This document shows, piece by piece, positions 4,179 to 21,663 of a DNA stretch of 25,308 bases. Source of the DNA: a virus. Taxonomy: Duplodnaviria > Caudoviricetes. The DNA lies in IMG/VR virus record IMGVR_UViG_3300025168_000607, positions 1 through 25,308 of that record, one strand, 5' to 3'. The notes beneath the pieces are model-generated. The model did not search any database, was not told the origin of the DNA, and saw only the letters and a program-made list of their open reading frames with translations. Every line of letters begins with the position of its first letter. The first letter of the stretch is position 1. A program made the translations under genes and the position numbers.

Positions 4179-4236
4179 CCTGTTACTATCCATCGTAGTC
4201 CTATGTGCTTTGTTTAAATCAATGTACGATGACTAA
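4165..4236 (+). CDS. Small hydrophobic peptide (23 aa), MKLISLLLSIVVLCALFKSMYDD
   Basis: Overlaps the end of the previous gene and fills the gap exactly up to the terminator; single TM-like stretch. Confidence 0.55.
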   Translation: MKLISLLLSIVVLCALFKSMYDD

Positions 4237-4238
4237 TC

Positions 4239-4264
4239 AAGGGGAGCGTTTGCTCCCTTTTTTT
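4239..4264 (+). terminator. Intrinsic terminator
   Basis: GGGAGC-GTTT-GCTCCC followed by T7. Confidence 0.9.
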
Positions 4265-4484
4265 ATGCCCAATAGTTACCTACAGGAGAGTGGTAAAATA
4301 ATTATACCACGTAATTAGTTAGAAGCCCTGTAACACACGATAATTATCCTGTGGTATGTTGATGCATTAAAGTGGATGATTTGATGGTAGGAGTTAGGTT
4401 TGGGGGGTTTACTCCCTATCTCTGTCCCTCTCACACACATTTAGACAGGATGATACCCCAAGTCATCGGATACAGTCCGTCTGG

Positions 4485-4527
4485 AAGCAGAGGGTAAAAT
4501 GATCATCAAGCAGAGGGTTGAATCATC
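4485..4527. repeat. Imperfect tandem direct repeat
   Basis: AAGCAGAGGGT at 4485 and 4508, each followed shortly by ATCATC. Confidence 0.75.
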
Positions 4528-4647
4528 GTTCATTGGATCAACTGCAGCTGCAACCATCTGACCTATTCCTGTACAAGAATTAAATATCCCTTCAGAGTAG
4601 ATAAATACTAGCCTAGTTATACTTTAGTTACAGCTGAACCTAATATA

Positions 4648-4675
4648 GTAATCGGTGTTTGTAATCGGTGGTTTG
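4648..4675. repeat. Tandem direct repeat
   Basis: GTAATCGGTG(G)TTTG twice. Confidence 0.75.
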
Positions 4676-4903
4676 GGTTTGACTTAAGGTACCCCCATGC
4701 AGAGATTCGGTTTCGGGTTTGGAATCGTGCACGTTACTATAATATATAACCCCCACCCTTTTTACATCTCAAAAAATTTTTATACCTTGGCAAAATGTAC
4801 GGTAGCACTTTAAATATAATATACAGTGTTTTTTGGGTTGACGACTTATGTGTTGTAGTCTGTCAAGACCCTATTGGTAATGTAATTAGTGTATCAACTG
4901 ACG

Positions 4904-5278
4904 ATGGGGATCAAGAAAGAGAAGACTAGGCAGCTGGGTATAGATCCTGGAACTGCTGCCAACAGACTTAAGAAGACCCTTCTATTTGAGTTTGCTAAAC
5001 AATTAGATTTACACTGGTGCTATCAATGTGCTGCAGAGATAAAAGACCCAGATAATTTTACTATAGAACACAAAACCCCTTGGCTTCACTCAGAAGATCC
5101 TAAGGGGTTATTTTTTGATATTGATAATATTGCTTTCTCGCACAAGAGTTGTAATTATAGTGCAGCTAGAAACAGGCAGGGTAAACCTTGCCCATCACTA
5201 ACAGCCTATAGAAAAGGCTGCCGATGTGATGATTGCAAGAAGTTAAAAAGTGATAATCAAAAAAAGTATAAGTCCTAA
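4904..5278 (+). CDS. HNH endonuclease-like protein with extra C-terminal Cys motif
   Basis: CYQC...IEHKTP...NIAFSHKSCN HNH pattern, then CPSLTAYRKGCRCDDC; ATG 4904 preferred over GTG 4889. Confidence 0.8.
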   Translation: MGIKKEKTRQLGIDPGTAANRLKKTLLFEFAKQLDLHWCYQCAAEIKDPDNFTIEHKTPWLHSEDPKGLFFDIDNIAFSHKSCNYSAARNRQGKPCPSLTAYRKGCRCDDCKKLKSDNQKKYKS

Positions 5279-5280
5279 TC

Positions 5281-6134: not shown

Positions 6135-8144
6135 TTATGAAATATCAAATACGTTATATGTTAAATAAATATCTATGCTAGTAAAACAATTAGTTGTAAA
6201 TGCTGAGTCAACAGAAATTTCTACAGCTTTATTTACATCATCGGTTAAATTTTGTGATACCTCATAATAAGGCATTGCTGGTATTATATGAAAAACTCTA
6301 TCTCCACTCTCGTTATACATAAACCTTCTGAAATGAGCTAGTGCAGTCTGATTAATAGCCCCTGGCTCTTTATCTTCGTAATGAATGTTTACATCTGCAG
6401 AAGAATTACTTTGAGTAGAGGCTCTATCAATTCTTATCATTCCACCCGTAGGTACTATAACTGTATTAGCACCTTGAGCTGCTACTAATTCTATTGGCGT
6501 AGTATGTAAAGCGTTACAATTTGCTGTACTTAAAGTTACCTTAACCTGTTTCGTTATTGCAATACTCGAATGAAGAGATGTTATATTAGGTTGCGCAGCA
6601 GCAGTTGTGGCAGTGTTAGGTGCTAGCCCTGCTATCGTAGCTACAGTAGCTGCTTGACCTGTGCACGAACCTGACGATCCTGAAGCGTTACCCGTTAGGT
6701 TACCTGAGAAAGTTCCTGAAGTAGTCCCAGCTATAGTTGTATTACCAGAGCTATCAAATGTTATACAAGTTGTACCATCATCATCTTTTATATCGTTTCC
6801 ATCAACCTGAAGGTCACCAACTATAGTTGTTAGTGATGAACTTCCCAGTCCAACAGTGACATCTATTTCATCATTAGTGCTACCACCTGTTAAAGTAAGC
6901 CCAGTTCCTAAGTCGTCATCGTGATTAGCAACTTGCAACTCTAATATACCAGACTCCTCACCGTCTGTTGCAACATCAACTTTACCTTGAATCTGAGCAT
7001 AAGTTTGTTGTGGCACATCTTGGTCAGCGTTATCACCAATAAAACGAACCCTACCTAATACATCACCACTTGCCCCAGCATTACCCTCATCTGTTATAAA
7101 ATCTAAAGAACCACCTATGTGAGCAAACCCACCCGTACTTTTTATTTGAAATATAGGTTTACTAGTATTACTATCTGATAATATAAGTGTTCCACTAGTA
7201 AAGGTTAGATCAGATTCAGCTTGTATAGCTGACGTTCCGTTACCTGTAAGTAAAGCATTAGATGTTAAGGTTGTAGCTCCTGTACCACCTTTAGCTACTG
7301 TTACTGTATCTGATAAAGTAGATCCAGCAGCTGTAATTGTTATAGGTGCAGTACCATCAAAATCAACTCCATTAATTGCTCTAGCTGTTGCTAATGCCGT
7401 AGCAGTTGCTGCATTTCCAGAACAAGAAGCTGCTGTTACATTTAAAGAGTTTATATCCGCTTGAGTTTGATCTGCTGTAGCACTAGCCTCAATACCATCA
7501 AGTTTATCATGGTGTGCAATAGACATAAGACCTTCTGCTGATCCTGTAGCCTCTGAGTAAGTAGTATTGGTATCTGTAGATGCTATGGTTATATTGTCAG
7601 CATCAGTATGAGTTAAGGTTACGTTAGATCCTGCAACAAACTTTATATCGTCTGTTCCTGATCCAGCCCCACCTGTTGTATTTCTTAATAAAATATCATC
7701 AGAGCTATCAACAAAAGAAAGAGTGGTTGTGTTTTGGGTGTTAGTATCTGCAGTCATGTCATCAACAACAAAGTCGATTCTACCGTTAGTGTCATCATAA
7801 GTAACTCCAATCCTTGTTTCAGTTCCTACAAGCATTCCTCCAACAATATCCTGAACTTGCTCTGAAGTTAATACTGTATCAGAAGCACTAAGCTCAACCT
7901 CTGCAACCTCGTTACTTTTATAGTATAATTTTCCGTCTGCAGATTTAGTGTATATAATACCACCATCACCATCAACAGGAGTTGTTGGGGCATTTACAGC
8001 TTCTCTTGTTCTAAGGTTATCAGCTTTTACGTCTCCGTAAAAATCAAAAAGGCTACGTTGTAGCCTTTTCTTCATTACTTTCATTACCTTAGTTCCGTAA
8101 TCAGTGACTACTTCTCCTATGGACCTCTTAAGGGATGATTTCAT
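6135..8144 (-). CDS. Tail fibre-like protein
   Basis: 669 aa T/G/S/D-rich; fibre motifs GLMS...KLDGIE, ATATALATARAINGVDFDGT, VAKGGTGATT, AAQPNITS. Confidence 0.8.
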   Translation of the reverse strand: MKSSLKRSIGEVVTDYGTKVMKVMKKRLQRSLFDFYGDVKADNLRTREAVNAPTTPVDGDGGIIYTKSADGKLYYKSNEVAEVELSASDTVLTSEQVQDIVGGMLVGTETRIGVTYDDTNGRIDFVVDDMTADTNTQNTTTLSFVDSSDDILLRNTTGGAGSGTDDIKFVAGSNVTLTHTDADNITIASTDTNTTYSEATGSAEGLMSIAHHDKLDGIEASATADQTQADINSLNVTAASCSGNAATATALATARAINGVDFDGTAPITITAAGSTLSDTVTVAKGGTGATTLTSNALLTGNGTSAIQAESDLTFTSGTLILSDSNTSKPIFQIKSTGGFAHIGGSLDFITDEGNAGASGDVLGRVRFIGDNADQDVPQQTYAQIQGKVDVATDGEESGILELQVANHDDDLGTGLTLTGGSTNDEIDVTVGLGSSSLTTIVGDLQVDGNDIKDDDGTTCITFDSSGNTTIAGTTSGTFSGNLTGNASGSSGSCTGQAATVATIAGLAPNTATTAAAQPNITSLHSSIAITKQVKVTLSTANCNALHTTPIELVAAQGANTVIVPTGGMIRIDRASTQSNSSADVNIHYEDKEPGAINQTALAHFRRFMYNESGDRVFHIIPAMPYYEVSQNLTDDVNKAVEISVDSAFTTNCFTSIDIYLTYNVFDIS

Positions 8145-8435
8145 TTATTTTCCTTTCATGTAGGCTCCTTTACCAGCCATCTTTACTTTAGATCCATGTT
8201 TAGCCATTTTTACTTTTGAACCATACATAGCCTTCATTTTTTTTAAAGCACCACCATTCTTCATTTTACCTTTCCCATCATTAGCATAGAATGGAACCAT
8301 TTTACCATCAGGACCTTTAACCATTTTTAATTTACCTCCATCTTTATACTTAGGCATTTTACCACCATCAGCATACATAGACATTGTTTTCTTTTTTATT
8401 GATGCACCGCCTGGTGCTTTTTTAATTGCTTTCAT
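8145..8435 (-). CDS. Lys/Met/Gly-rich basic protein with repeated xxGG motifs
   Basis: 96 aa; APGG, YADGG, YKDGG, MKNGG, GSKVKMA x2. Confidence 0.8.
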   Translation of the reverse strand: MKAIKKAPGGASIKKKTMSMYADGGKMPKYKDGGKLKMVKGPDGKMVPFYANDGKGKMKNGGALKKMKAMYGSKVKMAKHGSKVKMAGKGAYMKGK

Positions 8436-8436
8436 T

Positions 8437-8760
8437 TTAAAGTTCTTCTTTGCCTTCTAAGACGTTATAAAATTTATCTACCAACCTCCTGGTTTTACCT
8501 GTAACACGATACTGGTTGGGTTGGTTTGATTTCCAGGCTCGTTTTTCAAATACAAAAATGTAATCCCTTTTAACTAGTTCAGGAAACATCTTGTCATTAA
8601 ATATTTGACTAATGTACATGTTTTCTCTTACAAACCTTTTAGTAAAAGATTTCTTTTCATCATTTATAAAAAGAAGAAACCTTATTTGGTTATCTGTAAG
8701 ATTGTACTTTCTTTTGAAGGAGTACAAGGTATCGCTAAGATACTTCAGGTAATTCCTCAT
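8437..8760 (-). CDS. Winged-helix (MarR-like) DNA-binding protein
   Basis: LTDNQIRFLLFI...ELVKRDYI...YRVTGKTRRLV pattern typical of wHTH proteins. Confidence 0.65.
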   Translation of the reverse strand: MRNYLKYLSDTLYSFKRKYNLTDNQIRFLLFINDEKKSFTKRFVRENMYISQIFNDKMFPELVKRDYIFVFEKRAWKSNQPNQYRVTGKTRRLVDKFYNVLEGKEEL

Positions 8761-8780
8761 TGGCTTAGATTAAATTAGTT

Positions 8781-8826
8781 CAAAGATAATAATTTTATTA
8801 TAATTAAAAAATTATCATTACATTTG
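8781..8826. promoter_or_regulatory. Back-to-back promoters for the two late operons
   Basis: Minus strand TATCTTTG (8788-8781) and plus strand TACATTTG (8819-8826), both exact TAnnTTTG. Confidence 0.8.
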
Positions 8827-8857
8827 CGTATAAAATAAAAATTTAAAATAAAATATT

Positions 8858-9232
8858 ATGGCTTTATCAGGAGCAAAATTCCAAGAAGCAAGTTTAGGTC
8901 AGTATGGATCTAGTTATCTAGATAATGATGGAGATGTTTGTGACTTAAATGGATCTTCTGCAACAAGATATGTGTGTTCTATAACTTTTTTAGAGGATAC
9001 ACAATTTCAAGCTTTAGAAAACTTAGGAGGTGAAATAGGTTCCTTTAGTACTGTTACTGCAGAAAATAATCATGATGATGCAACAAATGGTTTTGGGGAA
9101 GCTGGCAACGCTACAGATTTAAGTGTAGGTGCTAGTGGTCAAATCTTTCCAAAAGGTATTACTGTTTTTGGTAGATGGGATTATGTCGAGCTTCACTCAG
9201 GAGCTTGTATTTGTTATTTCGCACCAGTATAG
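8858..9232 (+). CDS. Hypothetical protein, likely virion
   Basis: 124 aa; C-terminal FPKGITVFGRW...LHSG pattern. Confidence 0.8.
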   Translation: MALSGAKFQEASLGQYGSSYLDNDGDVCDLNGSSATRYVCSITFLEDTQFQALENLGGEIGSFSTVTAENNHDDATNGFGEAGNATDLSVGASGQIFPKGITVFGRWDYVELHSGACICYFAPV

Positions 9233-10673: not shown

Positions 10674-10886
10674 ATGGAAATATTTAAAAACGATAACGCT
10701 TGGAATGAAAAGGCTATAGTTGGATTTATAGCTTTTGCAATAATGTGTTTGATAATGATAGCTGACCTTGTTACAGGGTGGGTTGGATCAGACCTAGTAA
10801 TAAACGAGTTTGTATACGATTCATTTGTTTGGGTTGTGTTAGGCTCGTTTGGTATTTCTGGGGTAGAGAAATTCGCTAATAAATAA
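10674..10886 (+). CDS. Two-TM membrane protein, holin-like (start revised from 10629)
   Basis: ATG 1 nt after the previous stop; two hydrophobic segments, ends GISGVEKFANK. Confidence 0.75.
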   Translation: MEIFKNDNAWNEKAIVGFIAFAIMCLIMIADLVTGWVGSDLVINEFVYDSFVWVVLGSFGISGVEKFANK

Positions 10887-10889
10887 GAT

Positions 10890-11063
10890 ATGGCTAAAGC
10901 AGTTAAGAAATCAAAAGGTCTAACAGATAGACAAAAGGCAACTATGAAGAAACATTCAGTTCATCATACTGCTAAACACATGGCTTCTATGAAAAAAGCT
11001 ATGCTGTCTGGAAAGTCTTTTACTGAAGCTCACAAATTAGCAATGAAACAAGTTGGAAAATAA
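10890..11063 (+). CDS. Basic His/Met-rich 57 aa protein (absent from ORF track)
   Basis: MAKAVKKSKGLTDRQKATMKKHSVHHTAKHMASMKKAMLSGKSFTEAHKLAMKQVGK; fills the gap exactly; TAATG overlap with next gene. Confidence 0.85.
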   Translation: MAKAVKKSKGLTDRQKATMKKHSVHHTAKHMASMKKAMLSGKSFTEAHKLAMKQVGK

Positions 11064-11269
11064 TGCATAAAGGTTGTACTTGTAAAGCTGTAAAGCGAAA
11101 GAAAAAAGTTAAAAGTATGAAGAAGGGTGGCTCTGTAAAAGATGCTTGCTATCACAAGGTAGTATCTAGATACGGACCTAAGACTTCAGCTTATAGAAGT
11201 GGTGCAATGGCTAAGTGTCGAAAAGTAGGTGCTGCTAACTGGGGTGAAGGTGGTAAGAAAAAGAAATAA
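11063..11269 (+). CDS. Small basic protein
   Basis: 68 aa; KDACYHKV...SAYRSGAMAKCRKVGAANWG; TAATG coupling on both sides. Confidence 0.85.
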   Translation: MHKGCTCKAVKRKKKVKSMKKGGSVKDACYHKVVSRYGPKTSAYRSGAMAKCRKVGAANWGEGGKKKK

Positions 11270-11535
11270 TGGCAGTTAGAAAGACGGCAGCAGGTTTACG
11301 ACTTAAACGCTGGTTCAAAGAAGACTGGCGTACACCCAAAGGTAAAAAAGATTATAAGGGCGGAGAAAATACTTTTCGCCCTACTAAAAGAATTAGTAAA
11401 AAAACACCTACAACCTGGAGTGAGCTTACACCTAGTGAGAAGCGTAGAGCTCAAAAAGAAAAAAACACAAAAGGTAGAGTGTCTAAGTATAAAAGAAAAA
11501 GAAAAGTTAAAGCTGTTCGTAAGAGTAAAAGATAA
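11269..11535 (+). CDS. Basic protein, DUF5872-like
   Basis: LKRWFKEDW...RPTKRISKKTPTTWSEL; family name from memory. Confidence 0.75.
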   Translation: MAVRKTAAGLRLKRWFKEDWRTPKGKKDYKGGENTFRPTKRISKKTPTTWSELTPSEKRRAQKEKNTKGRVSKYKRKRKVKAVRKSKR

Positions 11536-11843
11536 TGGCTAAGGTAATAAAAAAAGCAAAAAAAGGTATGGGTATAAAAACCAGTATTAAGTCTGGTAAT
11601 TTTAGACCTACTAAAAAAGGTGCTGGTATGACACAAAAAGGTGTCAAAGCTTATAGACGTGCAAATCCTGGTAGCAAACTTAAAACTGCTGTAACTGGTA
11701 AAGTTAAAAAAGGTAGTAAGGCAGCTAAAAGAAGAAAATCTTATTGTGCTAGATCTTTAGGTCAACTAAAGCGTAGTAGTGCAAAAACTAGAAATAACCC
11801 TAACTCAAGAATCCGACAAGCACGAAGACGATGGAAATGCTAA
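11535..11843 (+). CDS. Basic protein, DUF6321-like
   Basis: GMTQKGVKAYRRANPGSKLKTAV...RRKSYCARS...RQARRRWKC; family name from memory. Confidence 0.78.
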   Translation: MAKVIKKAKKGMGIKTSIKSGNFRPTKKGAGMTQKGVKAYRRANPGSKLKTAVTGKVKKGSKAAKRRKSYCARSLGQLKRSSAKTRNNPNSRIRQARRRWKC

Positions 11844-14320
11844 CCAGACTAATTATTTTATTTACGCTTATTTCCACAAGCGTTTACTCTCAAGACAGTA
11901 TATTTGTAGATTGCAATGGAACACCATCTCCAGACAACTGGTTAGGTGATGGTTTTTGCGATGACGGTTCTTACACGTGGAATGGAAATCCTATAAACTT
12001 TAACTGTGAAGAGTTTAATTATGACGCAGGAGATTGTCCTTTGCCTATAGATACAATTCAAGGTTGCATGAATATGTTGGCCTTAAATTACAATCCTGAA
12101 GCAAATGTTGAAGATTTTAGCTGTGAGTTTCCTGTGTTTGGATGTACAGACCCAGAAGCTCCTAACTTTAACCCTTGGGCTGAAGAAGACGACAACAGTT
12201 GTGTTGGTGTAAGCTGTTCTGACGGTGAAGCTAAAATAATTCTTGAAATTACTTTAGATCAGTATCCAGGTGAAACAGGATGGATATTAACAGATTTATC
12301 TAATGGACAATCTGTAGAAAGTGTAATAGCTGGTGAGTACTCTTACGAACAATCTAATCAAACTATTGTATACGATTTATGTGTACCTGAAACTGGTGTA
12401 GAGCTTATATTAAGTGACGTATACGGTGACGGGCTTGAAGGGTCTTTATACGGTGGTGGTACAGATGGAGATTTTATAATACTTGGTGACGCAGAGCCTT
12501 GTGGTAGTTTAGATACTTTATGGTCTTTAGATTCGGCTTCTTTTGGTAGCACTGCTTATTCAGGTCCTATATGGTTAGAGCAATGTGATTTACCTATTGT
12601 AGAGGGGTGCACAAATAACACGTATATAGATTTTAATCCTTTTGCTAACTTTGATGATGGTAGTTGTGAAACATTACACACGTTAGGGTGTTTAAATTTT
12701 AATTCATATAATTATAATCCTAACGCTACATTAAACGAAATCATACCTACATGTAACTACACTCTTATTATAGAGGATGACGGTGGTGACGGTTGGGGTG
12801 ATTGCTATATAGGTGTAGTACAAGAGGATAGTATTCTTGGTACATATACTATGGGACCTGGATCTTACTCGCAAGAGTTTGGTATAACTTTAGAAACAGA
12901 TAAGCCTGTTAAGGTTTATTACTTTGAGATAGCTAATCTACAAACCCCTCCTGCAGAAGTCGCTTTTCAGACTATGCACAACTCATTTAGACTTATTAAT
13001 TCAGATGATATTGTAACACTGCAAGGTGGTATGTACCCATTTGCAAACAATGGGGCAGGAGCTTTAAAAGCATACGCTCCACCTTTTTGGCAAGTATATA
13101 CTGGTCTTCCATTTTGTGGAGATTATTGTATACCTACAGTGTACGGGTGTTTGGATGAACAATCATTAAACTACAATCCTGAAGCTAATACTTCTGATGA
13201 TAGCTGTATAGAGATTGTAGAAGGTTGTACCTCACCCTTTGCGTTTAATTATAATGAAAGTGCTAATGTAGATGATGAAAGTTGTGAGGCTGTTGTTATT
13301 GGTTGTATGAATAATCAGGCTTGGAATTATAATCCTGAAGCTAATACAGCAGACGAGTCTTGTTTATACTTTGGTTGTACTGATCAGTTAGCTCTTAATT
13401 ACGATAGCACTGCTAACGTAAATAATGACAACTGTATATATCCTATTCCTGGTTGTATTGATCCAGAAGCTTTTAACTTTGAGGTTGAAGCTAACGTTAA
13501 TGACGGTAGTTGCATCCCCGTTATAATAGGATGTATGGATCCTACAATGTATAACTATAATGAAGAAGCGAACACAGCAAGCGATAATTGCATTCCTTTT
13601 ATATTTGGGTGCAGTGATTCTACTGCATTTAATTATGACCCTGTTGCTAACACCGATAATGGGTCGTGTATTCCAATAACTCCTGGTTGTACTGATCCAA
13701 ATGCCTTTAATTACGATTTAGAAGCCAATACAGAGGACTTTTCTTGTGTAGATGTAGTGTATGGATGTACAGATGAAAACGCTTTTAATTACGATATTTT
13801 AGCTAATACAGATAATAGTGGTTGTATAGATGTATTAGAAGGCTGTATGGATCCGTTTGGATATAATTATGACGCAGTATATAATACAGATGATGGTAGT
13901 TGTTTGTATGACGCAGGGTGCATAGGAGGACCTGGTATTCCCTATTGGTTAAACGACACATGTTATGCTTGGGTTATTACAATAGACCCTTATTGCTGTA
14001 ATAATGAGTGGGATGATAAGTGTCAGCAAATATATTGGAGCTGCTCTTGGGATAGCCCTCTAGATACGAGAGATTTACTTAGAGGACACAATATAGTTAT
14101 GTACCCTAATCCTATGGGTGGCGTATTAAATATATTAATAAATGATCCTGTATCAATAAAGGTGTATGATATATCAGGAAAACTTGTAATACGAGTTAAA
14201 GAAAGTCAAACACATAAAGGTTTAAATCAATTAGATGTAAGTTTATTACCTTCTGGAGTATATAATTTTAGCGTAACATATAATGGTAATACTAGTACAA
14301 CAAAAGTATTAAAGAGATGA
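11831..14320 (+). CDS. Secreted Cys-rich protein with LNR-like domain, GCxD repeats and T9SS type A C-terminal sorting domain
   Basis: Signal peptide ending VYS|Q; WLGDGFCD...NCEEFNYDAGDC; about 14 GCxD repeats; C-terminal MYPNP...VYDISGK...LDVSLLPSGVY...TKVLKR. Confidence 0.9.
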   Translation: MEMLTRLIILFTLISTSVYSQDSIFVDCNGTPSPDNWLGDGFCDDGSYTWNGNPINFNCEEFNYDAGDCPLPIDTIQGCMNMLALNYNPEANVEDFSCEFPVFGCTDPEAPNFNPWAEEDDNSCVGVSCSDGEAKIILEITLDQYPGETGWILTDLSNGQSVESVIAGEYSYEQSNQTIVYDLCVPETGVELILSDVYGDGLEGSLYGGGTDGDFIILGDAEPCGSLDTLWSLDSASFGSTAYSGPIWLEQCDLPIVEGCTNNTYIDFNPFANFDDGSCETLHTLGCLNFNSYNYNPNATLNEIIPTCNYTLIIEDDGGDGWGDCYIGVVQEDSILGTYTMGPGSYSQEFGITLETDKPVKVYYFEIANLQTPPAEVAFQTMHNSFRLINSDDIVTLQGGMYPFANNGAGALKAYAPPFWQVYTGLPFCGDYCIPTVYGCLDEQSLNYNPEANTSDDSCIEIVEGCTSPFAFNYNESANVDDESCEAVVIGCMNNQAWNYNPEANTADESCLYFGCTDQLALNYDSTANVNNDNCIYPIPGCIDPEAFNFEVEANVNDGSCIPVIIGCMDPTMYNYNEEANTASDNCIPFIFGCSDSTAFNYDPVANTDNGSCIPITPGCTDPNAFNYDLEANTEDFSCVDVVYGCTDENAFNYDILANTDNSGCIDVLEGCMDPFGYNYDAVYNTDDGSCLYDAGCIGGPGIPYWLNDTCYAWVITIDPYCCNNEWDDKCQQIYWSCSWDSPLDTRDLLRGHNIVMYPNPMGGVLNILINDPVSIKVYDISGKLVIRVKESQTHKGLNQLDVSLLPSGVYNFSVTYNGNTSTTKVLKR
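13145..13903 (+). repeat. Ten tandem ~26-aa GC[TML]DxxAxNYxxxANxDDxSC repeats
   Basis: Read directly from the translation. Confidence 0.9.
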
Positions 14321-15411
14321 AGAAATTAAAAGAATTTTTTAAACCTGACGTTGCGTATTTATCATTTTGGTTAGCCTTAGTTTTATTTTACACTATATTT
14401 TTTAGCATGGTGTCATCTTGTAACGCTCAAGGTTTAAATAAAATACTTAAATATTCTACTTTTTACGCAGCAGTTAATGGTGGCACATCACTAGGTGACA
14501 ATCAAATATGGTCTGTAACATCTGGGGCATTAGAAGAAGAAACTATTAAAACTCCTTTTGATTATAACATATCTGTTGGTATTAGAAAGATAAAAAGATT
14601 TGGATATGAAAATAGAGCGAATACATTCTACAACGGTACTGAGAACTCATACTCAGACGCAGCGACATTAGGTCGGTTAGATGGCTTTGAATATTTATTT
14701 GAAGCTGATCTTGTGAGACGGTTAGGCGTTAACTATGTAAACCAGAATCACTTTATAAGATATGTTGCAGATAGCTGGGTAGCCAAGGTGGCATACCTTG
14801 AGGATGGATTCGCTGATATTAAATACTTCGAGGCTTCTGAAAGATTTCGGTTAAAGGTAAGGGATGGCAAGCTTTCGTTGAACGGGGGTTTAGTACAAAG
14901 GCTTGCCGAACCTTACGGTTTTAATCCTTTAGCAGACTGGGTTCTTGATAACGGAACTTTACATTACACTTACCTAGCTCTACAAGAAGGGTACAACATC
15001 AACCTAGAGGGGGAGTATTTTTCTCCTAACGGAGCTCTTGTAGCAAACAGTCAAGAAGTATGGGAAGAAGTTGTTATACCACAAGTTATAAATAATTATG
15101 TAGAAAAACAAAGAAACTCTATATCTAATATAGTTGAGTATTCTTTTGTTATGGGTTTAGACTATTATCATTTTACAAAAGACTTCTGGTTTCACACTTG
15201 GGGTAATATTATGCCATATCACTTAGACACTAAGAATACTTACTCTTATCATAAGTTTAATGAAGGTCAGTGGGTTGACTATTCTTTAGGTTTAATTTAT
15301 GGTTATAGATTTAATAAAAGTTTTGGTATATTTGTGGAGGGAAGGTACAATAAGTATTGGAACAGACAGTGGCATAACTTTAGTGTTGGACTTAATTATG
15401 TAATATTTTAA
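14317..15411 (+). CDS. Probable outer-membrane beta-barrel protein
   Basis: N-terminal hydrophobic signal, aromatic-rich alternating strands, C-terminal beta-signal-like FSVGLNYVIF; ATGA overlap with upstream gene. Confidence 0.75.
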   Translation: MKKLKEFFKPDVAYLSFWLALVLFYTIFFSMVSSCNAQGLNKILKYSTFYAAVNGGTSLGDNQIWSVTSGALEEETIKTPFDYNISVGIRKIKRFGYENRANTFYNGTENSYSDAATLGRLDGFEYLFEADLVRRLGVNYVNQNHFIRYVADSWVAKVAYLEDGFADIKYFEASERFRLKVRDGKLSLNGGLVQRLAEPYGFNPLADWVLDNGTLHYTYLALQEGYNINLEGEYFSPNGALVANSQEVWEEVVIPQVINNYVEKQRNSISNIVEYSFVMGLDYYHFTKDFWFHTWGNIMPYHLDTKNTYSYHKFNEGQWVDYSLGLIYGYRFNKSFGIFVEGRYNKYWNRQWHNFSVGLNYVIF

Positions 15412-15413
15412 AA

Positions 15414-15698
15414 ATGGCAAAAGAATTAAACGAGGAAACATCATTTAACATAAGTCTAAAAACTTTAGCAGGCATAGGGTTTGCAATGGCTGCAGTTATT
15501 AGTGGTTGGTTTGTACTACAAGCAGATATAGCAGAAGCTAAAAAATTGCCTTTACCTGCAGATCCTGAAATTACTCGTATGGAATACGATATGAAAGATC
15601 AACTTATCCGACAAACTATTATGTCTACACAAGAAGACGTAACAGAAATTAAAACACAAATGCTGAGGATGGAGGACAAGATTGATAAACTAAGATAA
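15414..15698 (+). CDS. Single-TM protein with C-terminal coiled coil
   Basis: LAGIGFAMAAVISGWFVL then heptads QEDVTEIKTQMLRMEDKIDKL. Confidence 0.8.
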   Translation: MAKELNEETSFNISLKTLAGIGFAMAAVISGWFVLQADIAEAKKLPLPADPEITRMEYDMKDQLIRQTIMSTQEDVTEIKTQMLRMEDKIDKLR

Positions 15699-15702
15699 TC
15701 TT

Positions 15703-16038
15703 ATGAAAAAAATATTATTTTTATTATTAATTCCATTTACAAGTATAGCTCAAGATTTTCCTAACGGAATGGTTGCTGTTGAGTTTAATGCTAGTTTTAA
15801 TAAATCTAACGAGGTAGCTTGGCTATCAAAACTATCAGACTGCGAAATTCAAAGGGTTGATATAGCTGCAGACTCAAGATGGTCTAAAGAATATAAAATA
15901 GTGGTTGTTCCTACTATTGTTATATTCAACAATAACGAAGAGGTAAAAAGATTTCAAGCAAATATTATGATGACTATGGAAGCTACTAAGGGTGAAGTAC
16001 AAAACTCTATAGACGAAATAGTTATGGAAGCGTTTTAA
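15703..16038 (+). CDS. Exported thioredoxin-fold protein lacking CxxC
   Basis: Signal peptide SIA|Q; VAVEFNASFN, RVDI, YKIVVVPTIVIFNNNEEVKRF; only one Cys. Confidence 0.8.
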   Translation: MKKILFLLLIPFTSIAQDFPNGMVAVEFNASFNKSNEVAWLSKLSDCEIQRVDIAADSRWSKEYKIVVVPTIVIFNNNEEVKRFQANIMMTMEATKGEVQNSIDEIVMEAF

Positions 16039-16047
16039 ATTTAAATT

Positions 16048-16497
16048 ATGAAACTAAGTAAAAATTTCTCTCGTGCAGAGATAGAGCATAGTAACACAGC
16101 AAAAAGATTAGGTATAAGCAATGAGATGTCAGAGAAACACTTGGAAAACATGCAAAGGCTCATTGACAATCTTATACAGCTTCTTCGTGACTCTATTGGT
16201 CCTATTAGGATTAGTAGTGGTTATCGTTCCCCGTCACTTAATCGTGCAATTGGTGGGTCATCTCGCAGCCAGCATTGTAAAGCTGAAGCTTTGGATTTGC
16301 AGTTTTGGGAAAAAGGAAAAATGAATAACAAAGTTATTTATGATTGGATATTAGAGTCTGACTTAGAGTTTGATCAAATGATAAACGAGTTTAATTTTGC
16401 TTGGATTCACATATCTTTAAAAAAAAATAGTAATAGAAAGCAGGTACTAGAAGCGTATAAAGATGATGAAGGTGATACTGCTTACAAACTTGTCTAA
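16048..16497 (+). CDS. Peptidase M15 family endolysin
   Basis: LSKNFS, SSGYRS...N..IGG...SQH...A.D, WIHIS Zn-peptidase motifs. Confidence 0.9.
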   Translation: MKLSKNFSRAEIEHSNTAKRLGISNEMSEKHLENMQRLIDNLIQLLRDSIGPIRISSGYRSPSLNRAIGGSSRSQHCKAEALDLQFWEKGKMNNKVIYDWILESDLEFDQMINEFNFAWIHISLKKNSNRKQVLEAYKDDEGDTAYKLV

Positions 16498-16499
16498 TT

Positions 16500-16886
16500 A
16501 TGAGTAAATTATTAAGTTTTTTAGGTGGTGGAGTAATAGAGAAGGTAGGCAATGTAATAGACAACCTTAGTACATCTGACGAAGAAAGATTAGCTGCTAA
16601 ACAAGCGATGGAAGAAGTTCTTATGCAGGCTGAGGCTCAAGCTCAAGAGCAAGTTACTAGACGCTGGGAAGCTGACATGAAGTCTGATAATTGGCTTTCT
16701 AAAAACATTCGTCCTTTGATATGTATATTTTTAACTGCAATTTTTGTAGTTTTGTCAGTGTTTGATGGGAACGCAGGAGGATTTGAGATTCAAGAGAGTT
16801 ATATTCCTATATATCAAACGTTATTAATAACAGTATATGGAGCTTACTTTGCAGGTAGGTCTATAGAAAAAATAAAGAAAAAGTAA
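16500..16886 (+). CDS. Holin, GTA 3TM-holin-like family
   Basis: RWEADMKSDNWLSKNIRP, TM segments, AYFAGRSIEK; adjacent to endolysin. Confidence 0.85.
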   Translation: MSKLLSFLGGGVIEKVGNVIDNLSTSDEERLAAKQAMEEVLMQAEAQAQEQVTRRWEADMKSDNWLSKNIRPLICIFLTAIFVVLSVFDGNAGGFEIQESYIPIYQTLLITVYGAYFAGRSIEKIKKK

Positions 16887-16887
16887 A

Positions 16888-18429
16888 ATGTCAGATTTAA
16901 AAGGAAAATCAATAGCGTCTACATATAAAAATTTAATTCAATCTTCTAGTGAAATTTCTAACACTACTTTAAAACAAGTTCAAAGTGGTTCTGGAAATAA
17001 TGTTGCTATGAAGTTGTCTACAGATAAGGCTGTTTTCCCAAAGGTAGGTATTGGTAATACAGGTTCTACTCCTGATGGTTTACTGCATGTTTTGTCTACA
17101 TCTGCAGGCTCAGTTACAGCAAACTCTTTAGCTGATGAAGTTGTTTTAGAGTCTTCAACGAATACTGGTTTATCTATATTATCAGGTGCGTCACATAAAG
17201 GTAATATGTTTTTTGGTGATGCTAATGGCAATGATGTAGGTAAAATATCTTACAATCACGCTGATGACTCGTTTAGTTTTAGCACTAACGGATCTGTATC
17301 TATGACTTTAGATAAAAATTCTAATCTTAAAGTAAACGGTATAGTTTCTCAATCAGAGGATAGGTATTTTCTTGAAGAGTATTTTCATAAATTACCTTAT
17401 AAAGATATTCAGGATTGTGAAGTAACTCAATCTAGCAGTGCTACAACAGAAGTGCCAAGTTCTACTAAAAACACTAGAATTACTACAGTAGCTAATGACT
17501 TAGCTGCTAACGACTCTCAAGAGTTTACGTTTACAAACGTAATGATACATGATAAATCTTATGTTCACGCTGTTTTAGTTGATACTAGTGCAACTATAGC
17601 TGATAATGCTAGCGTTGTTGTAATGGCTTATGATATAGCAAATGGTAACTGTAAAATTAGAATATCAAATACAGGTGTTGACATTGCTAGTATGACTTTT
17701 ATAATTCAAGTTACAGTTGATCCTCATATAGATTCTAATGATCACTGGGTTATAGATGGAACTAATTCTGACGAAACAAAAGTAACATATGCTGGAGCTC
17801 AACCAGGATTAAGAGTTTATACTAATTCTGGTGATAACGATCAAGTAATACTTAATCCTAAAATAAGTAATCAAGGTAATAATACTGATTTAATAAACAC
17901 GTCTCCTTGGAGAAATGTAAACTTTTTCTCTGAGTATCAGACAGAGCTTAACATAGCAATATCAACTCATAGTACTATTACAAATAAAGCTATATGGGCT
18001 GGAATGAAATTATCTAATACAGGTGCTTATGCTACAGATGCAGATCAAGCTTATTTTTTATACGCTACTGATGATGATTTAGGAGCTTTAACAACAAATG
18101 GTAATCTTCACTTTGTGTATAGTATAGGTGGAGTAGATTACATAACAGATTTAGGTGTAGCAATTACTGCTAGCACTGTTTATAGGTTAAAGTTAGCTTT
18201 TGATGAAAATAGAAAACTTAGTGTTTTTGTAAACGATGTACAGTATGGTTTAACTTCTACTCCAACTACAACAACTGCAGGTGGTGTAACTGAGGCTGTT
18301 TCTACTACAAAATCTTTAGCAATGACAGCTAGTGCAAATTTATTTCCAGTTATAGCTTTACAAAACCTGTCAGCAGCATCTAGATTTCTTTATTGTCACT
18401 TTATAAAAATATCAAGAACATTAGCATAA
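16888..18429 (+). CDS. Virion structural / tail-associated protein
   Basis: 513 aa S/T-rich; VGIGNT..PDGLLHV fibre-type motif; beta-rich C-terminus. Confidence 0.7.
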   Translation: MSDLKGKSIASTYKNLIQSSSEISNTTLKQVQSGSGNNVAMKLSTDKAVFPKVGIGNTGSTPDGLLHVLSTSAGSVTANSLADEVVLESSTNTGLSILSGASHKGNMFFGDANGNDVGKISYNHADDSFSFSTNGSVSMTLDKNSNLKVNGIVSQSEDRYFLEEYFHKLPYKDIQDCEVTQSSSATTEVPSSTKNTRITTVANDLAANDSQEFTFTNVMIHDKSYVHAVLVDTSATIADNASVVVMAYDIANGNCKIRISNTGVDIASMTFIIQVTVDPHIDSNDHWVIDGTNSDETKVTYAGAQPGLRVYTNSGDNDQVILNPKISNQGNNTDLINTSPWRNVNFFSEYQTELNIAISTHSTITNKAIWAGMKLSNTGAYATDADQAYFLYATDDDLGALTTNGNLHFVYSIGGVDYITDLGVAITASTVYRLKLAFDENRKLSVFVNDVQYGLTSTPTTTTAGGVTEAVSTTKSLAMTASANLFPVIALQNLSAASRFLYCHFIKISRTLA

Positions 18430-18450
18430 TTAAATTTAAATTAAATATAT

Positions 18451-18729
18451 ATGGAAGCAATAAACCCTATTATAAGAAAAATAACTATAGGGGACTTAAA
18501 GCAAGGTTTGACTTATCAAGTAGGTCAAAAGATGCTTGGAGGTTCTCTAGAAGTCACAGCCATAATACAAGATGAGGCTGCGTGGTACAAGCATCAACAG
18601 GTTGTATACGATGTGTATATAAAAAAAGATGGTGAAGAGTTTTCAAGACCTTGGAAAAGGTTTTTTTCTCAACCAACAGCTATAGAGTACAACACTGCAG
18701 TACTGGAAGAAGAGTACGAAATTAAATAA
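18451..18729 (+). CDS. Conserved phage hypothetical protein
   Basis: IIRKITIG...YQVGQ...GG...WKRF...IEY; long A-rich leader. Confidence 0.8.
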   Translation: MEAINPIIRKITIGDLKQGLTYQVGQKMLGGSLEVTAIIQDEAAWYKHQQVVYDVYIKKDGEEFSRPWKRFFSQPTAIEYNTAVLEEEYEIK

Positions 18730-18754
18730 AAAGTAAACGTAAATATAAGCAAGA

Positions 18755-19324
18755 ATGAAGCCAATTAAAGATGTCTACTGGATAGAAGTAGTAAAGCAAA
18801 CTGAAGATACTATTATGTTAAACGGTAAGGAGTTGTATAGAGATACTTCTTATGACCCTATGAGGTTAGCAAGACAGTTTGGGGTTATTTATGAAACACC
18901 TATACATAATGATTTAAATATACAAAAAGGTGATAAAGTTTGGTTTCATCATTTTGTTGCAACAGATATTAATAAAGTAAAGTATATTGATGATAAAGAA
19001 ATTTATCAGGCTAATTTAAATCAAATATATTTAGTTGAAAGAGACGGTGAAATGATACCAATAGGTATTTGGAACTTTATAAAGCAAGAAATGAAAGAGC
19101 CAGAGCAATCTGAGTCTGGTATATTTTTAGAAACATCTGCTTCTAATGTAGAACTTCATGGTCATGCTGTATATATAAATGACTGGATGAAAGATCAAGG
19201 AGTTAAAAAAGGAGATAGAGTATTTTTTAGTGAAAACTCTGAGTACGACATAAATATAAATGGGGAGTCTCTTCTTAGAATGAGAAACTTTGACATATTA
19301 GGTGTTTATGAAGGAACAGAATAA
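18755..19324 (+). CDS. Tandem GroES/Cpn10-like co-chaperonin
   Basis: Second half: EQSESGIFL...VKKGDRVFF...INGESLLRMRNFDILGV; first half: KPIKD.YWIE...IQKGDKVWF. Confidence 0.75.
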   Translation: MKPIKDVYWIEVVKQTEDTIMLNGKELYRDTSYDPMRLARQFGVIYETPIHNDLNIQKGDKVWFHHFVATDINKVKYIDDKEIYQANLNQIYLVERDGEMIPIGIWNFIKQEMKEPEQSESGIFLETSASNVELHGHAVYINDWMKDQGVKKGDRVFFSENSEYDININGESLLRMRNFDILGVYEGTE

Positions 19325-19595
19325 AGATTATGCCCTTAAGACTTTAGAGAAGTTAATAGAGGCAAGTAAAGGAGCTGTAGACCTTCTTATAGAGGAGATA
19401 GGCAAACCTTTAATAGAGGAAGATGACGCTAAAAGAAGACAAGCTATAAAAGCAAAAAGAGAGTGCTTTGAGGATTGTCAAGAAATTCTTTTAGGAATAA
19501 AAAACCTTGAGGATAGAATCAAGGAAGGAGAATCCTTAATAGAAGAGAAAAAAGACTTTAAAGGGTCTTTTGCTGAACGGTATGCAAAAAAGTGA
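19308..19595 (+). CDS. Probable terminase small subunit
   Basis: Helical 95 aa protein overlapping the TerL start; called mainly by position. Confidence 0.55.
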   Translation: MKEQNKDYALKTLEKLIEASKGAVDLLIEEIGKPLIEEDDAKRRQAIKAKRECFEDCQEILLGIKNLEDRIKEGESLIEEKKDFKGSFAERYAKK

Positions 19596-21663
19596 TATGA
19601 TATATCTTACTGAAGGTAGTGAAGGAGATGTCTTAGAGTTTGATAACTTAAAGATAGTTCTACCTAAAAAGCCTAGATATAAAAAAGATATACTATATCA
19701 TAACCTTCCTAAGAAACAACAAAAGTGGACTAGAGAGGATATACCAAAGGGGTTAACAAGGGAGAACGCTACAGATTATGTAGACTATATAGAAGAGGAG
19801 TTTAGAAGAAGAAGAGACGGTTTATGGTTTTATAACAATGGTGTTCCTACGTATATTACTGGATCGCATTATATGTTTATTCAGTGGAGTAAAATAGATG
19901 TTGGTTATCCTGATTACAGAGATGCTAACAGGACGTTCTTTATTTTTTGGGAAGCGTGTAAAAACGACAAGAACTCTTACGGAATGTGTTTTCTTAAAAA
20001 CAGACGTAGTGGTTTTTCTTACATGGCAAGTAGTGAGATAGTTAATCTAGCTACTCAAGTTTACGATAGTAACTTTGGTTTACTTTCTAAAACAGGTGCA
20101 GATGCTAAAACAATGTTTACAGATAAGGTAGTTCGTATATATCGTAACTACCCTTTCTTTTTTCAGCCTATACAAGATGGTTCTAGTAACCCTCGTGTAG
20201 AGTTAGCATTTAGAGAGCCTGCTAAAAAAATAACAAGAAATCAAAAGCATATAGAGAAATCTGAAGCTTTAAATTCTATTATAGATTGGAAGAACACTGC
20301 TGATAACAGTTATGATGGTATGAAGCTAAAGCTTTTAGTTCATGATGAAGCTGGTAAGTGGACAGGTCAAAACTCTATAAAGAAAAACTGGGGTGTAACT
20401 CAAACCTGTTTACTTCTAGGTAGAAAAGTTGTAGGAAAATGCATGATGGGTTCTACTGCTAACAAGTTGCAAGATGGTGGTGCGGAGTTTAAAGATATAT
20501 TTCATGACTCTGACATGTCAGAAAAAGATCTTAATGGTAGGACAAAAAGTGGTTTGTATAAGTTGTTTATACCCGCATTTGACAACTTAGAAGGATTTAT
20601 AGATGAGTATGGTTATTCTGTTATAGACACCCCTGATAAACCTGTTATGGGTATTGATAATATGTTAATTGATACTGGTGCTAGAAATTATATACAAAAT
20701 AGAAGAGATGTACTAAAGGATGATACTACAGCTTTATCTGAATTTAAACGTCAGTTTCCATTTACTGTTGAAGAGGCTTTTAGAAACGATACACAAAGTT
20801 GTATATTTGATGTCGAAAGAATTTATCAGCAAATGGATTACAACGAAGTTAATAATACTCCTACAACAAGGGGTGAGTTTGTTTGGAAAAATGGCGTACA
20901 GGATAGCGAAGTTATGTGGATACCTCACAGAAAAGGCAAGTGGGAAATCACTTGGGTTCCAGAGGCTCAAAATCAAAATGTTATATCTTCTAGGTTTAAC
21001 AAAAAGTTTCCTGGAAAAGCAGACCAACTTGTTGCAGGTTGTGACCCTTACGATCATGATACGACTACCGATGGTAGAAGGTCTGATGCTGCTGCTCATG
21101 TATTTCATAAATTTAGTATGTCAAGCGATGCGTCTATGCAGTTTGTATGTGAGTACATTAATAGACCGCCTAAAGCAGAAATATTTTACGAAGACATGAT
21201 TAAGATGTGTGTGTTTTATGGCTGTCAAATATTGGTAGAGAATAACAAGGTAGGGATACTAAAATATTTTGAAAACAGAGGATATTATGAATATTTAATG
21301 GATAGACCAGATATGACTCACACAGAGTGGAGTAGGGGTAAGCAAAAAACAAAAGGTATACCTGGTTCAGGTGCTGCAGTAATAAATGCTCAAGCAGAGG
21401 CAATAGCTACTTATATATATGACCATGTTGGTTATAACGCAAGTACAGGAGAAATTGGACAATGTTTTTTTAATACACTTCTTGATGATTGGAGTAGGTT
21501 CGAGATAGATAACAGGACAAAATACGATGCTAGTATATCGTCATCATTAGCTTTATTAGCGTCACAAAAATATATAAAACCTAAAAAAGAATTAAAGATT
21601 TCATCTCCTTTAGTTAAAAAATACAACAATAAAGGAATGTTTAGTAAAAGATTAAGAGCATGA
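19582..21663 (+). CDS. terL: Terminase large subunit
   Basis: Walker A-like LKNRRSGFS, Walker B LLVHDEAGK, motif III GSTA, nuclease AGCDPYD, VENN; start could be 19570 or 19582. Confidence 0.93.
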   Translation: MQKSDMIYLTEGSEGDVLEFDNLKIVLPKKPRYKKDILYHNLPKKQQKWTREDIPKGLTRENATDYVDYIEEEFRRRRDGLWFYNNGVPTYITGSHYMFIQWSKIDVGYPDYRDANRTFFIFWEACKNDKNSYGMCFLKNRRSGFSYMASSEIVNLATQVYDSNFGLLSKTGADAKTMFTDKVVRIYRNYPFFFQPIQDGSSNPRVELAFREPAKKITRNQKHIEKSEALNSIIDWKNTADNSYDGMKLKLLVHDEAGKWTGQNSIKKNWGVTQTCLLLGRKVVGKCMMGSTANKLQDGGAEFKDIFHDSDMSEKDLNGRTKSGLYKLFIPAFDNLEGFIDEYGYSVIDTPDKPVMGIDNMLIDTGARNYIQNRRDVLKDDTTALSEFKRQFPFTVEEAFRNDTQSCIFDVERIYQQMDYNEVNNTPTTRGEFVWKNGVQDSEVMWIPHRKGKWEITWVPEAQNQNVISSRFNKKFPGKADQLVAGCDPYDHDTTTDGRRSDAAAHVFHKFSMSSDASMQFVCEYINRPPKAEIFYEDMIKMCVFYGCQILVENNKVGILKYFENRGYYEYLMDRPDMTHTEWSRGKQKTKGIPGSGAAVINAQAEAIATYIYDHVGYNASTGEIGQCFFNTLLDDWSRFEIDNRTKYDASISSSLALLASQKYIKPKKELKISSPLVKKYNNKGMFSKRLRA

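Follow-up and report, generated by a model that had tools for sequence, protein, structure and literature searches.

The virus record IMGVR_UViG_3300025168_000607, a 25,308-nucleotide stretch analysed here over its full length (hereafter the window), carries four tightly packed genes predicted to code for a secreted surface cargo, an outer-membrane beta-barrel, a single-pass inner-membrane coiled-coil protein (TMCC) and an exported thioredoxin-fold protein (TRX). Judged from its distribution among sequenced genomes, this module is mobile and phage-borne, with rare cellular orphans, and it matches no known system in the literature searched, falling outside the spanins, the Dsb oxidoreductases and the PorP/SprF shuttles. 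The reading that we favour, held at somewhat less than even confidence, is that the four products form a lipoprotein-free envelope bridge that replaces a spanin in the outer-membrane step of lysis, with TMCC predicted to reside in the inner membrane, TRX in the periplasm, the barrel in the outer membrane and the cargo on the cell surface.

The window (25.3 kb) is phage DNA, with a terminase (phrog_6681, E = 4e-167) and a portal protein (phrog_6547, E = 6e-143). All four module genes lie on the plus strand. The gene for the window's cargo, cargo A (11831..14320, 829 aa), overlaps the barrel gene (14317..15411, 364 aa) by 4 nt, and TMCC (15414..15698, 94 aa) and TRX (15703..16038, 111 aa) follow after gaps of 2 and 4 nt. 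An M15 peptidase endolysin gene (16048..16497, plus strand; PF08291, 60.6 bits against a cut-off of 23.2) starts 9 nt after TRX and precedes a GTA-type holin gene with three transmembrane (3-TM) segments (16500..16886, plus strand; PF11351, 32.7 bits against 24.8). The open reading frames (ORFs) and their coordinates thus bear out the first-pass annotation, made from the letters of the window alone, which had described four coupled genes directly before endolysin and holin. Its assignment of these genes to a late operon found no backing, as promoter scans of the window did not exceed chance level; promoter and terminator scans, including one for a Bacteroidota −7 motif, gave chance-level matches only, and the RNA runs X19 and X20 yielded only short contigs, mostly 85-95% alike, with no evidence of expression. 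A chimeric assembly was ruled out. L088 is 99.9% identical to the window over 13742-23934 (possibly from the same sample), L089 and L092 are collinear with it at 88.7% identity over 12133-15753 and 82.6% over 11057-15735, respectively, and contigs from run X2 cover 11658-12820, 14009-15523 and 15751-16534. Since these collinear contigs and run contigs span the junctions, the assembly is sound. The closest cultured terminases, those of Elemovirus and Maribacter phage Panino, share 36-37% identity with that of the window; these relatives, together with the sorting domain, signal-peptide Gln sites and sequons described below, point to a host in the Bacteroidota.

We collected 286 loci with a full-length barrel, which reduced to 119 at <90% identity; 46 with flanks shorter than 5 kb were dropped, leaving 43 loci of clade A, 27 of clade B and 3 of clade C, and hence 70 dereplicated A/B loci. 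All four genes were present in 42 of the 43 clade A and 26 of the 27 clade B loci, so that the set is complete in 68/70, compared with 53/70 for an endolysin or holin. The two incomplete loci are probably technical misses (L142 has a 1134-aa cargo homologue, and TMCC lies at the edge of L195). TMCC and TRX lie within 450 nt of each other in 67 of the 69 loci having both, and five gene orders occur among the A/B loci. Reverse searches, which mostly reached clade A, gave the same picture: all three partners accompanied the cargo in 44/52 loci, the other 8 ending inside the cargo or barrel gene, while searches anchored on TMCC recovered TRX in 80/80 and the barrel in 76/80 (three of the remaining loci are at contig ends and one has its barrel just outside the flank). 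Within 9 kb of the module in the 70 loci we found M15 in 32, any annotated endolysin in 41, an endolysin or holin in 53 and a terminase in 16; three endolysin types occur near the module, other types replacing M15 in other loci. A DUF5675 gene near the module in 13/70 loci (e.g. L082:10987-11454), none with M15 nearby, is possibly an unrecognised endolysin.

The module is widespread in viral DNA. The barrel alone forms 3,440 clusters at 90% identity and occurs in at least 594 IMG/VR stretches, and all barrel atlas neighbours with a recorded taxon are viral. A pattern scan of 185,579 GTDB genomes, with settings fitted to close relatives, returned 7 loci in 6 metagenome-assembled genomes of unrelated taxa, on contigs that look viral (five with the module among phage genes, two being short ends beside giant ORFs; a terminase is present on two contigs and a tail sheath on one). 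Profile searches over the order of G002 (401 genomes) gave two barrel matches, one on a viral contig of G002 and the other a lone homologue among housekeeping genes in G062, and three TRX matches, on that G002 contig, on a second phage contig and on a contig that looks cellular. These scans rule out a common host operon, sporadic capture of which had been named as a way for the proposal to fail: the four-gene association is conserved and almost wholly phage-borne, with rare cellular orphans only. Lone barrel homologues on cellular-looking contigs (L251:9379-10593, which is G062:C35; L468:2983-4194; L252, ~10680-10940) may be a source of the phage gene or captured copies; besides the G062 homologue, one cellular-type barrel came from metagenomes, and a broken barrel fragment in G062 adjoins genes with the same Cys repeat as the cargo. 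Among 50,697 deposited phage records, the barrel and TMCC searches came up empty and the TRX search gave only weak matches to ordinary thioredoxins; culture collections therefore miss the module. As the full set occurs in crAss-related phages, in T4-like myoviruses and in ~29-kb phages with another portal type, it has probably moved between families as a unit.

TMCC, which had been proposed as an inner-membrane anchor, is predicted to be one from hydropathy and flanking charges. A ~16-aa cytoplasmic tail precedes a single transmembrane helix starting near residue 16, with a mean of 1.18 Lys or Arg in the five residues before the helix versus 0.02 after it (n = 169), in keeping with an N-in/C-out topology. 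The periplasmic part consists of a short helix, a Pro linker, a conserved RxE(Y/F)xMKDxxIR motif and, by eye, a C-terminal coiled coil. For the window protein, Pfam, PHROG and NCBIfam gave no family match at cut-off; a comparison of 115 TMCC sequences with holin PHROGs gave scattered weak matches only. An i-spanin is likewise described as a type II inner-membrane protein with a periplasmic helix-linker-coiled coil (Kongari 2018, PMC6139136).

The TRX of the window has a signal peptide ending at SIA↓Q, a single Cys and the C-terminal residues MEAF. It matches the thioredoxin family PF00085 below cut-off (E = 2e-4), and 3/3 clade B homologues match it above cut-off. In place of WCxxC it has FNKSN, while the cis-Pro motif is retained (VVPT). 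Homologues share (W/F)NxxN, both Asn being at least 90% conserved and the cis-Pro invariant, and any CxxC occurs in only 2/173. With NxxN in place of the catalytic CxxC, TRX is therefore not a disulfide catalyst, and the periplasmic folding helper first suggested had to be abandoned; we predict instead a redox-inactive periplasmic adaptor or binding protein. Among TRX proteins linked to a barrel, 184/185 have a Phe among their last two residues.

Two further lineages carry reduced forms. Clade D, from HK97-type siphoviruses, comprises 13 loci that represent about four distinct types and in which TMCC-TRX stands directly before endolysin and holin (M15 in 6, amidase in 5 and holin in 9, the rest lost to contig ends). 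Five clade D records, one of them complete at 35.5 kb, contain no barrel and no type A sorting domain, and their TRX has a basic C-terminal tail. Clade C comprises 10 loci with other portal and terminase types; a TMCC homologue of 223-233 aa (homology to TMCC, hhalign 97.6%) lies just before the barrel in 8 of them, no TRX was found in five records except for one match at E = 0.004, and no cargo was found in the flanks. In 3/3 proteins tested (L238:7300-7998, L242:7205-7891 and L243:5040-5711), this inner-membrane homologue contains an MshE-related cyclic di-GMP (c-di-GMP) motif above cut-off (NF053729, 40.9-45.9 bits against 38), and it is possibly a phage sensor of host c-di-GMP. We rejected the notion that the clade C protein of 228-233 aa is a TMCC-TRX fusion, its extra part being the N-terminal MshE-related motif and a longer coiled coil. 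Thus TMCC, the one gene present in every full and reduced version of the module, is its one constant part. The length of its periplasmic C-terminal part differs between forms, with a median of 59 aa where TRX is present versus 121 aa where it is not (~121 aa in clade C). A longer coiled coil without TRX and a changed TRX tail without the barrel are as expected of a bridge with interchangeable spacers.

The second protein has a signal peptide ending at CNA↓Q and a C-terminal Phe. Its AlphaFold2 model (110-row alignment; pLDDT 84.7, pTM 0.76) consists of 12 long strands and one hairpin. Strands 2 and 3 are joined by a conserved loop of ~30 aa, probably on the periplasmic side or in the lumen, and strands 7 and 8 by a helical loop of ~75 aa that the strand order would place outside. 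The signal peptide, the even strand number, the C-terminal aromatic residue and the barrel fold, to which fold matches add weight, agree with the initial assignment, and we predict that this protein is an outer-membrane beta-barrel of a new family: the window sequence matched nothing in Pfam, PHROG, NCBIfam or PDB, and 22 distant members had no relevant Pfam match. The best Foldseek matches were the porins NanC and KdgM (E = 3e-5, TM-score 0.34 by query), which share 9-12% identity with the barrel at TM-scores of 0.31-0.34 by query length. A second fold search gave generic membrane barrels with no standout (best Z 11.1, rmsd 4.0, 186 residues aligned), and a viral protein in BFVD aligned at a TM-score of 0.85 with 21% identity. 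PorV, PorP and SprF, whose fold has 14 strands, are not among the barrel fold matches listed, which does not exclude them. The signal-peptide-then-Gln pattern, first noticed in the three window translations, is kept across homologues (183/190 barrels and 175/185 TRX, by regular expression). A lipobox-like leader followed by a Cys-Cys pair in 12/190 barrels and 1/185 TRX (L049:7989-9038, L060-L067, L146, L148, L149, L154, L175 and L081:2915-3253) suggests lipidated variants.

The porin matches raise the idea of the barrel as a monomeric porin or an uptake channel of the NanC/KdgM kind that the phage carries, with the cargo as ligand catcher and TMCC-TRX as an unrelated lysis accessory, the operon being shared because all four genes need late expression and export. 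That barrel plus cargo and TMCC plus TRX are separable, and that lone cellular barrel homologues exist, would fit this idea; the fold matches are generic, however, and the barrel never occurs without TMCC in 73 phage loci (in clade C the two are adjacent in 2/3), and we regard it as improbable.

Cargo A bears, at residues 757-829, the type A C-terminal domain (CTD) that had been read in it as a type IX secretion system (T9SS) signal, with TIGR04183 at 46.2 bits against a cut-off of 23 (48.4 bits against 27 in a second score for the TIGR04183/PF18962 domain); it is not of type B (CHU_C, 14.6 bits against 27). A basic-hydrophobic N-terminus ending at VYS↓Q (by eye and regular expression) leads into a Cys-rich head that looks LNR-like, two probable beta-sandwich domains (~residues 127-253 and ~307-433; both by eye, and neither head nor sandwiches with a Pfam match), at least 12 copies of a ~26-aa repeat, GC..N(Y/F)...A....C, and a small Cys-rich domain. 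The protein contains 45 Cys, 125 Asp plus Glu against 17 Lys plus Arg, and 7 D(S/T)x sequons. Its homologues (n = 87, two or three non-cargo repeat proteins among them) have 3-20 repeats and 654-1353 aa. In five large clade A records, the type A CTD was matched once and only once per record. The Cys repeat (~13145-13900) weakly matches residues 328-354 of the solved macrophage-expressed gene 1 protein (E = 0.017), and is present too in host proteins and in large phage proteins without signal peptides.

In clade B, whose barrels share ~30% identity with that of the window, an unrelated protein of 148-310 aa follows the barrel in 76/80 loci, the remaining 4 losing the cargo position to contig ends. 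It has a signal peptide followed by Gln, a head rich in Cys with a weak resemblance to LDL-receptor class A (E = 0.004, below cut-off, in 2/3 tested), a stalk and a tail resembling a short CTD. Among 72 tails, a B-like motif and motif E occur in 72 each, a cleavage-like site in 70, and GxYI in 47 by strict and 72 by relaxed reading. Short T9SS CTDs have been described as having a cleavage site together with closely spaced motifs B, D and E (Ye et al. 2025, PMC11969387), a pattern that the clade B tail fits. Independent support for this assignment is weak: a low-power search found weak matches in 5/121 genomes of the class of G002 versus 1/121 controls, just one of them C-terminal; the C-terminal PDB matches 4kca and 7jvi were not significant; comparison with long CTD profiles was poor (hhalign 9.5%); though 4/86 long CTDs scored above 8 bits versus 0/860 shuffles. 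Two unrelated cargo families in one position indicate that the cargo slot is swappable; with the short-tailed proteins counted as cargo, a cargo that goes its own way apart from the other three genes can be rejected for clades A and B. In L177 (~8001-9016, clade B), the barrel gene is in pieces and a gene that looks glycoside-hydrolase-like is inserted before the cargo gene.

The D(S/T)x sequon, in which x belongs to a set of allowed third-position residues, is enriched in both cargo families (803 observed versus 297 ± 17 in shuffles for cargo A and 463 versus 67 ± 8 for cargo B), and depleted in barrels (41 versus 131) and TRX (26 versus 62), with 117 versus 93 in terminases; these counts come from related sequences and hence are not independent. 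D(S/T)x is described as a Bacteroidota O-glycosylation motif (PMC11969387). The sequon enrichment and the CTD-type cargo in 69/70 A/B loci support the cargo part of the original proposal, in which the whole module served to show an adhesin-like protein on the host surface. The part that had the small genes exist for display is weakened by a complete siphovirus lysis cassette with TMCC and TRX but without barrel or type A cargo, and by barrel plus TMCC without TRX in clade C with cargo-free flanks; display as the only purpose is doubtful.

As a full account of the module, surface display for exclusion, masking or adhesion would make the barrel a shuttle or anchor of the cargo, have TMCC and TRX tether or assemble it and leave the neighbouring lysis genes incidental. 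The cargo lies within 60 nt of the barrel in 57/70 loci and stays with it where TMCC-TRX is on the opposite strand; two unrelated, sequon-rich cargo families fill one slot; no cargo-anchored locus with room downstream lacks a barrel; the five large records have one type A CTD each; and cargo-shuttle gene pairs are reported as the rule for type B CTDs (PMC12618676). Against this, the CTDs here are of type A or short, kinds reported to be handled by the host PorV (PMC12618676, PMC11969387), the barrel, for which 12 strands are predicted, does not match PorP/SprF in Pfam, and TRX is unable to form disulfides by the usual chemistry. Together with the reduced forms of clades C and D, these points make this account unlikely in our view.

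We favour the lipoprotein-free bridge on the strength of the i-spanin topology of TMCC, the position of clade D, the pattern of spacers and the absence of a lipoprotein: a screen of lipobox ORFs in the complete genomes G641, G651 and G653 and in the window, made with our own regular expression of unknown sensitivity, found no credible lipoprotein, and hardly any ORFs of G651 and G653 other than the module genes have an N-terminal hydrophobic stretch. In this bridge, TMCC would be the i-spanin-like subunit, a type II membrane protein with helix, linker and coiled coil, and TRX a non-catalytic adaptor bound to that coiled coil, reaching the outer membrane through the barrel by way of its conserved C-terminal Phe. 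In siphoviruses lacking the barrel, the basic TRX tail would stand in for the barrel contact, and in the lineage lacking TRX a coiled coil twice as long would do so for the adaptor. Once the endolysin has removed the peptidoglycan, the bridge would pull the membranes together. The cargo, exported by the host T9SS through PorV and then O-glycosylated, would form an acidic stalk rich in Cys, held on the large outer loop of the barrel or next to it; its role is the weakest step, and may be to keep the infected cell shielded or aggregated up to lysis, or to signal to the bridge.

Several observations weigh against such a bridge. An o-spanin-type lipoprotein is absent from most members, lipobox-like leaders being confined to the 12/190 barrels and single TRX mentioned above, and the lipobox screen also gave 3 candidate lipoproteins in 7 cellular stretches. 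By our own estimate, a 59-aa periplasmic part plus a thioredoxin domain is short when set against an intact periplasm. For a spanin, a surface cargo is not required, yet one is present in 69/70 A/B loci; lysis genes were found in just 53/70 loci (59 with DUF5675), 11 having none within 9 kb; and rare cellular orphan barrels and TRX occur without partners. Similarity patterns of the barrel follow those of TMCC and TRX (rho 0.77-0.78) no more closely than those of holin and M15 (0.75-0.76), with no separation. Finally, the clade C c-di-GMP motif and the large outer loop of the barrel would fit regulation better than fusion.

Regulation is the core of another explanation, in which TMCC and TRX would act as a T/RI-type pair holding back or releasing the holin, much as in T4 lysis inhibition; stalk and barrel would report superinfecting virions, neighbouring cells or particles, and clade C would read c-di-GMP from inside. 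The position in the lysis cassette, the motif in all three clade C proteins tested and the clade B heads with their weak LDL-receptor resemblance suit such a timing sensor, as does T4 RI, described as a binding partner of the holin T that is soluble in the periplasm and has a cleavable signal peptide (PMC8385771), TRX being of the same export type. Yet in T4 the holin is T itself, whereas the 3-TM holin of these phages is a protein apart, no sequence link between TMCC and T-like holins was seen, and the missing spanin would be left unexplained. To our knowledge, there is no signal path from a cargo anchored in lipopolysaccharide through a barrel. We doubt this explanation. A combined function, in which the four-layer device, with its glycosylated stalk as a decoy or sensor, would replace the spanin and also make the final lysis step depend on cues from outside (on c-di-GMP in one lineage), is a tentative extension of the bridge that we hold possible, if somewhat unlikely; if true, lysis machines would gain a new class, one that acts on the outer membrane under regulation and is exchanged as a whole by unrelated phage families.

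Other genes of the window deserve brief mention. The gene p85 (10674..10886, plus strand, 70 aa), with two hydrophobic stretches and no family match, is near the module in 43/70 loci, T4-like members included, and by eye may be a second holin-like gene. Directly upstream of the cargo gene, 10890-11843 holds four small, very basic genes (57, 68, 88 and 102 aa), two of which match DUF5872 and DUF6321, and which undergo fusion, splitting and loss among relatives. About 1.1 kb at 4180-5280 separates convergent gene blocks and contains a GTG-started ORF of 129 aa, Cys/His-rich and HNH-like by eye. A GroES-like co-chaperonin gene (18755-19324) lies just 5' of the terminase genes, an order identical in Elemovirus.

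How phages without a spanin breach the outer membrane is an open question, no spanin having been found by Kongari et al. in 91/677 genomes (PMC6139136), and the module offers small, clonable candidate genes for this step. Its natural reduced series (TMCC plus TRX, TMCC plus barrel, all four) makes the question testable in laboratory Flavobacterium. The module is common in ocean viral DNA, probably that of flavobacterial phages; if the cargo is displayed, infected flavobacteria would carry a phage-made, host-glycosylated stalk, with possible effects on superinfection, on aggregation and on what becomes of lysed cells in blooms. Unimolecular spanins have been annotated in two cultured flavophages (Bartlau et al. 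2021, PMC8776804). In Elemovirus elemoF, the module is absent from the 10-59.8 kb stretch checked; its gp32 (NC_055853; L479:20392-20937), a 181-aa protein encoded between the endolysin and GroES-terminase genes, has, by eye, an N-terminal hydrophobic helix ending in Cys and alternating C-terminal strands ending in Phe. This protein, without a homologue among 479 other sequences, may be a one-gene envelope bridge.

The claim that no phage system like this one had been described holds for the module in the literature searched, supplements aside (phage T9SS cargo, Bacteroidota and marine spanins), and fails for phage T9SS cargo as such, which Cryophage already offers. There, the cargo is an endoglucanase, a GH39 protein and a PA14 protein (Bellas et al. 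2020, PMC7468147), variable proteins whose sorting domains are likewise of type A and which presumably leave through the T9SS of the host; the Cryophage account consulted mentions no barrel, membrane anchor or thioredoxin (PMC7468147), whereas here one Cys-rich, stalked cargo per genome is fixed in a four-gene module. Prevotella intermedia's short CTDs, reported from that species only, are predicted at 43-55 aa, against ~40 aa for the clade B tails (PMC11969387). A cargo gene beside a barrel gene is also the layout of type B CTD cargo and its cognate PorP/SprF shuttle (PMC12618676, PMC9143113), type A CTDs using PorV (PMC12618676); the module CTD is of type A or short, not TIGR04131, and the barrel matches neither the PorP/SprF nor the PorV family, its model having 12 long strands and generic barrel matches. 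NanC and KdgM are its best Foldseek matches, but it has large extra loops. TRX shares the thioredoxin fold and cis-Pro of Dsb oxidoreductases and lacks their CxxC active site. T4 T/RI has the same layout of a membrane protein with a soluble periplasmic partner and a tie to lysis (PMC8385771), but no sequence similarity to the module, which has a separate holin and outer-membrane and surface parts. Near to our favoured bridge stand the two-component spanins, lambda Rz/Rz1 and the separated type of T4, PseT.3/PseT.2 (PMC6139136), which share the topology of TMCC and its position in the lysis cassette, seen most clearly in the siphoviruses. The module has the i-spanin feature and the holin/endolysin linkage (in the window, 53/70 loci and the siphoviruses) and lacks the o-spanin lipobox, the predicted partner of TMCC being a soluble thioredoxin fold released by signal peptidase I, an integral beta-barrel or both rather than a lipoprotein, with a T9SS cargo attached.

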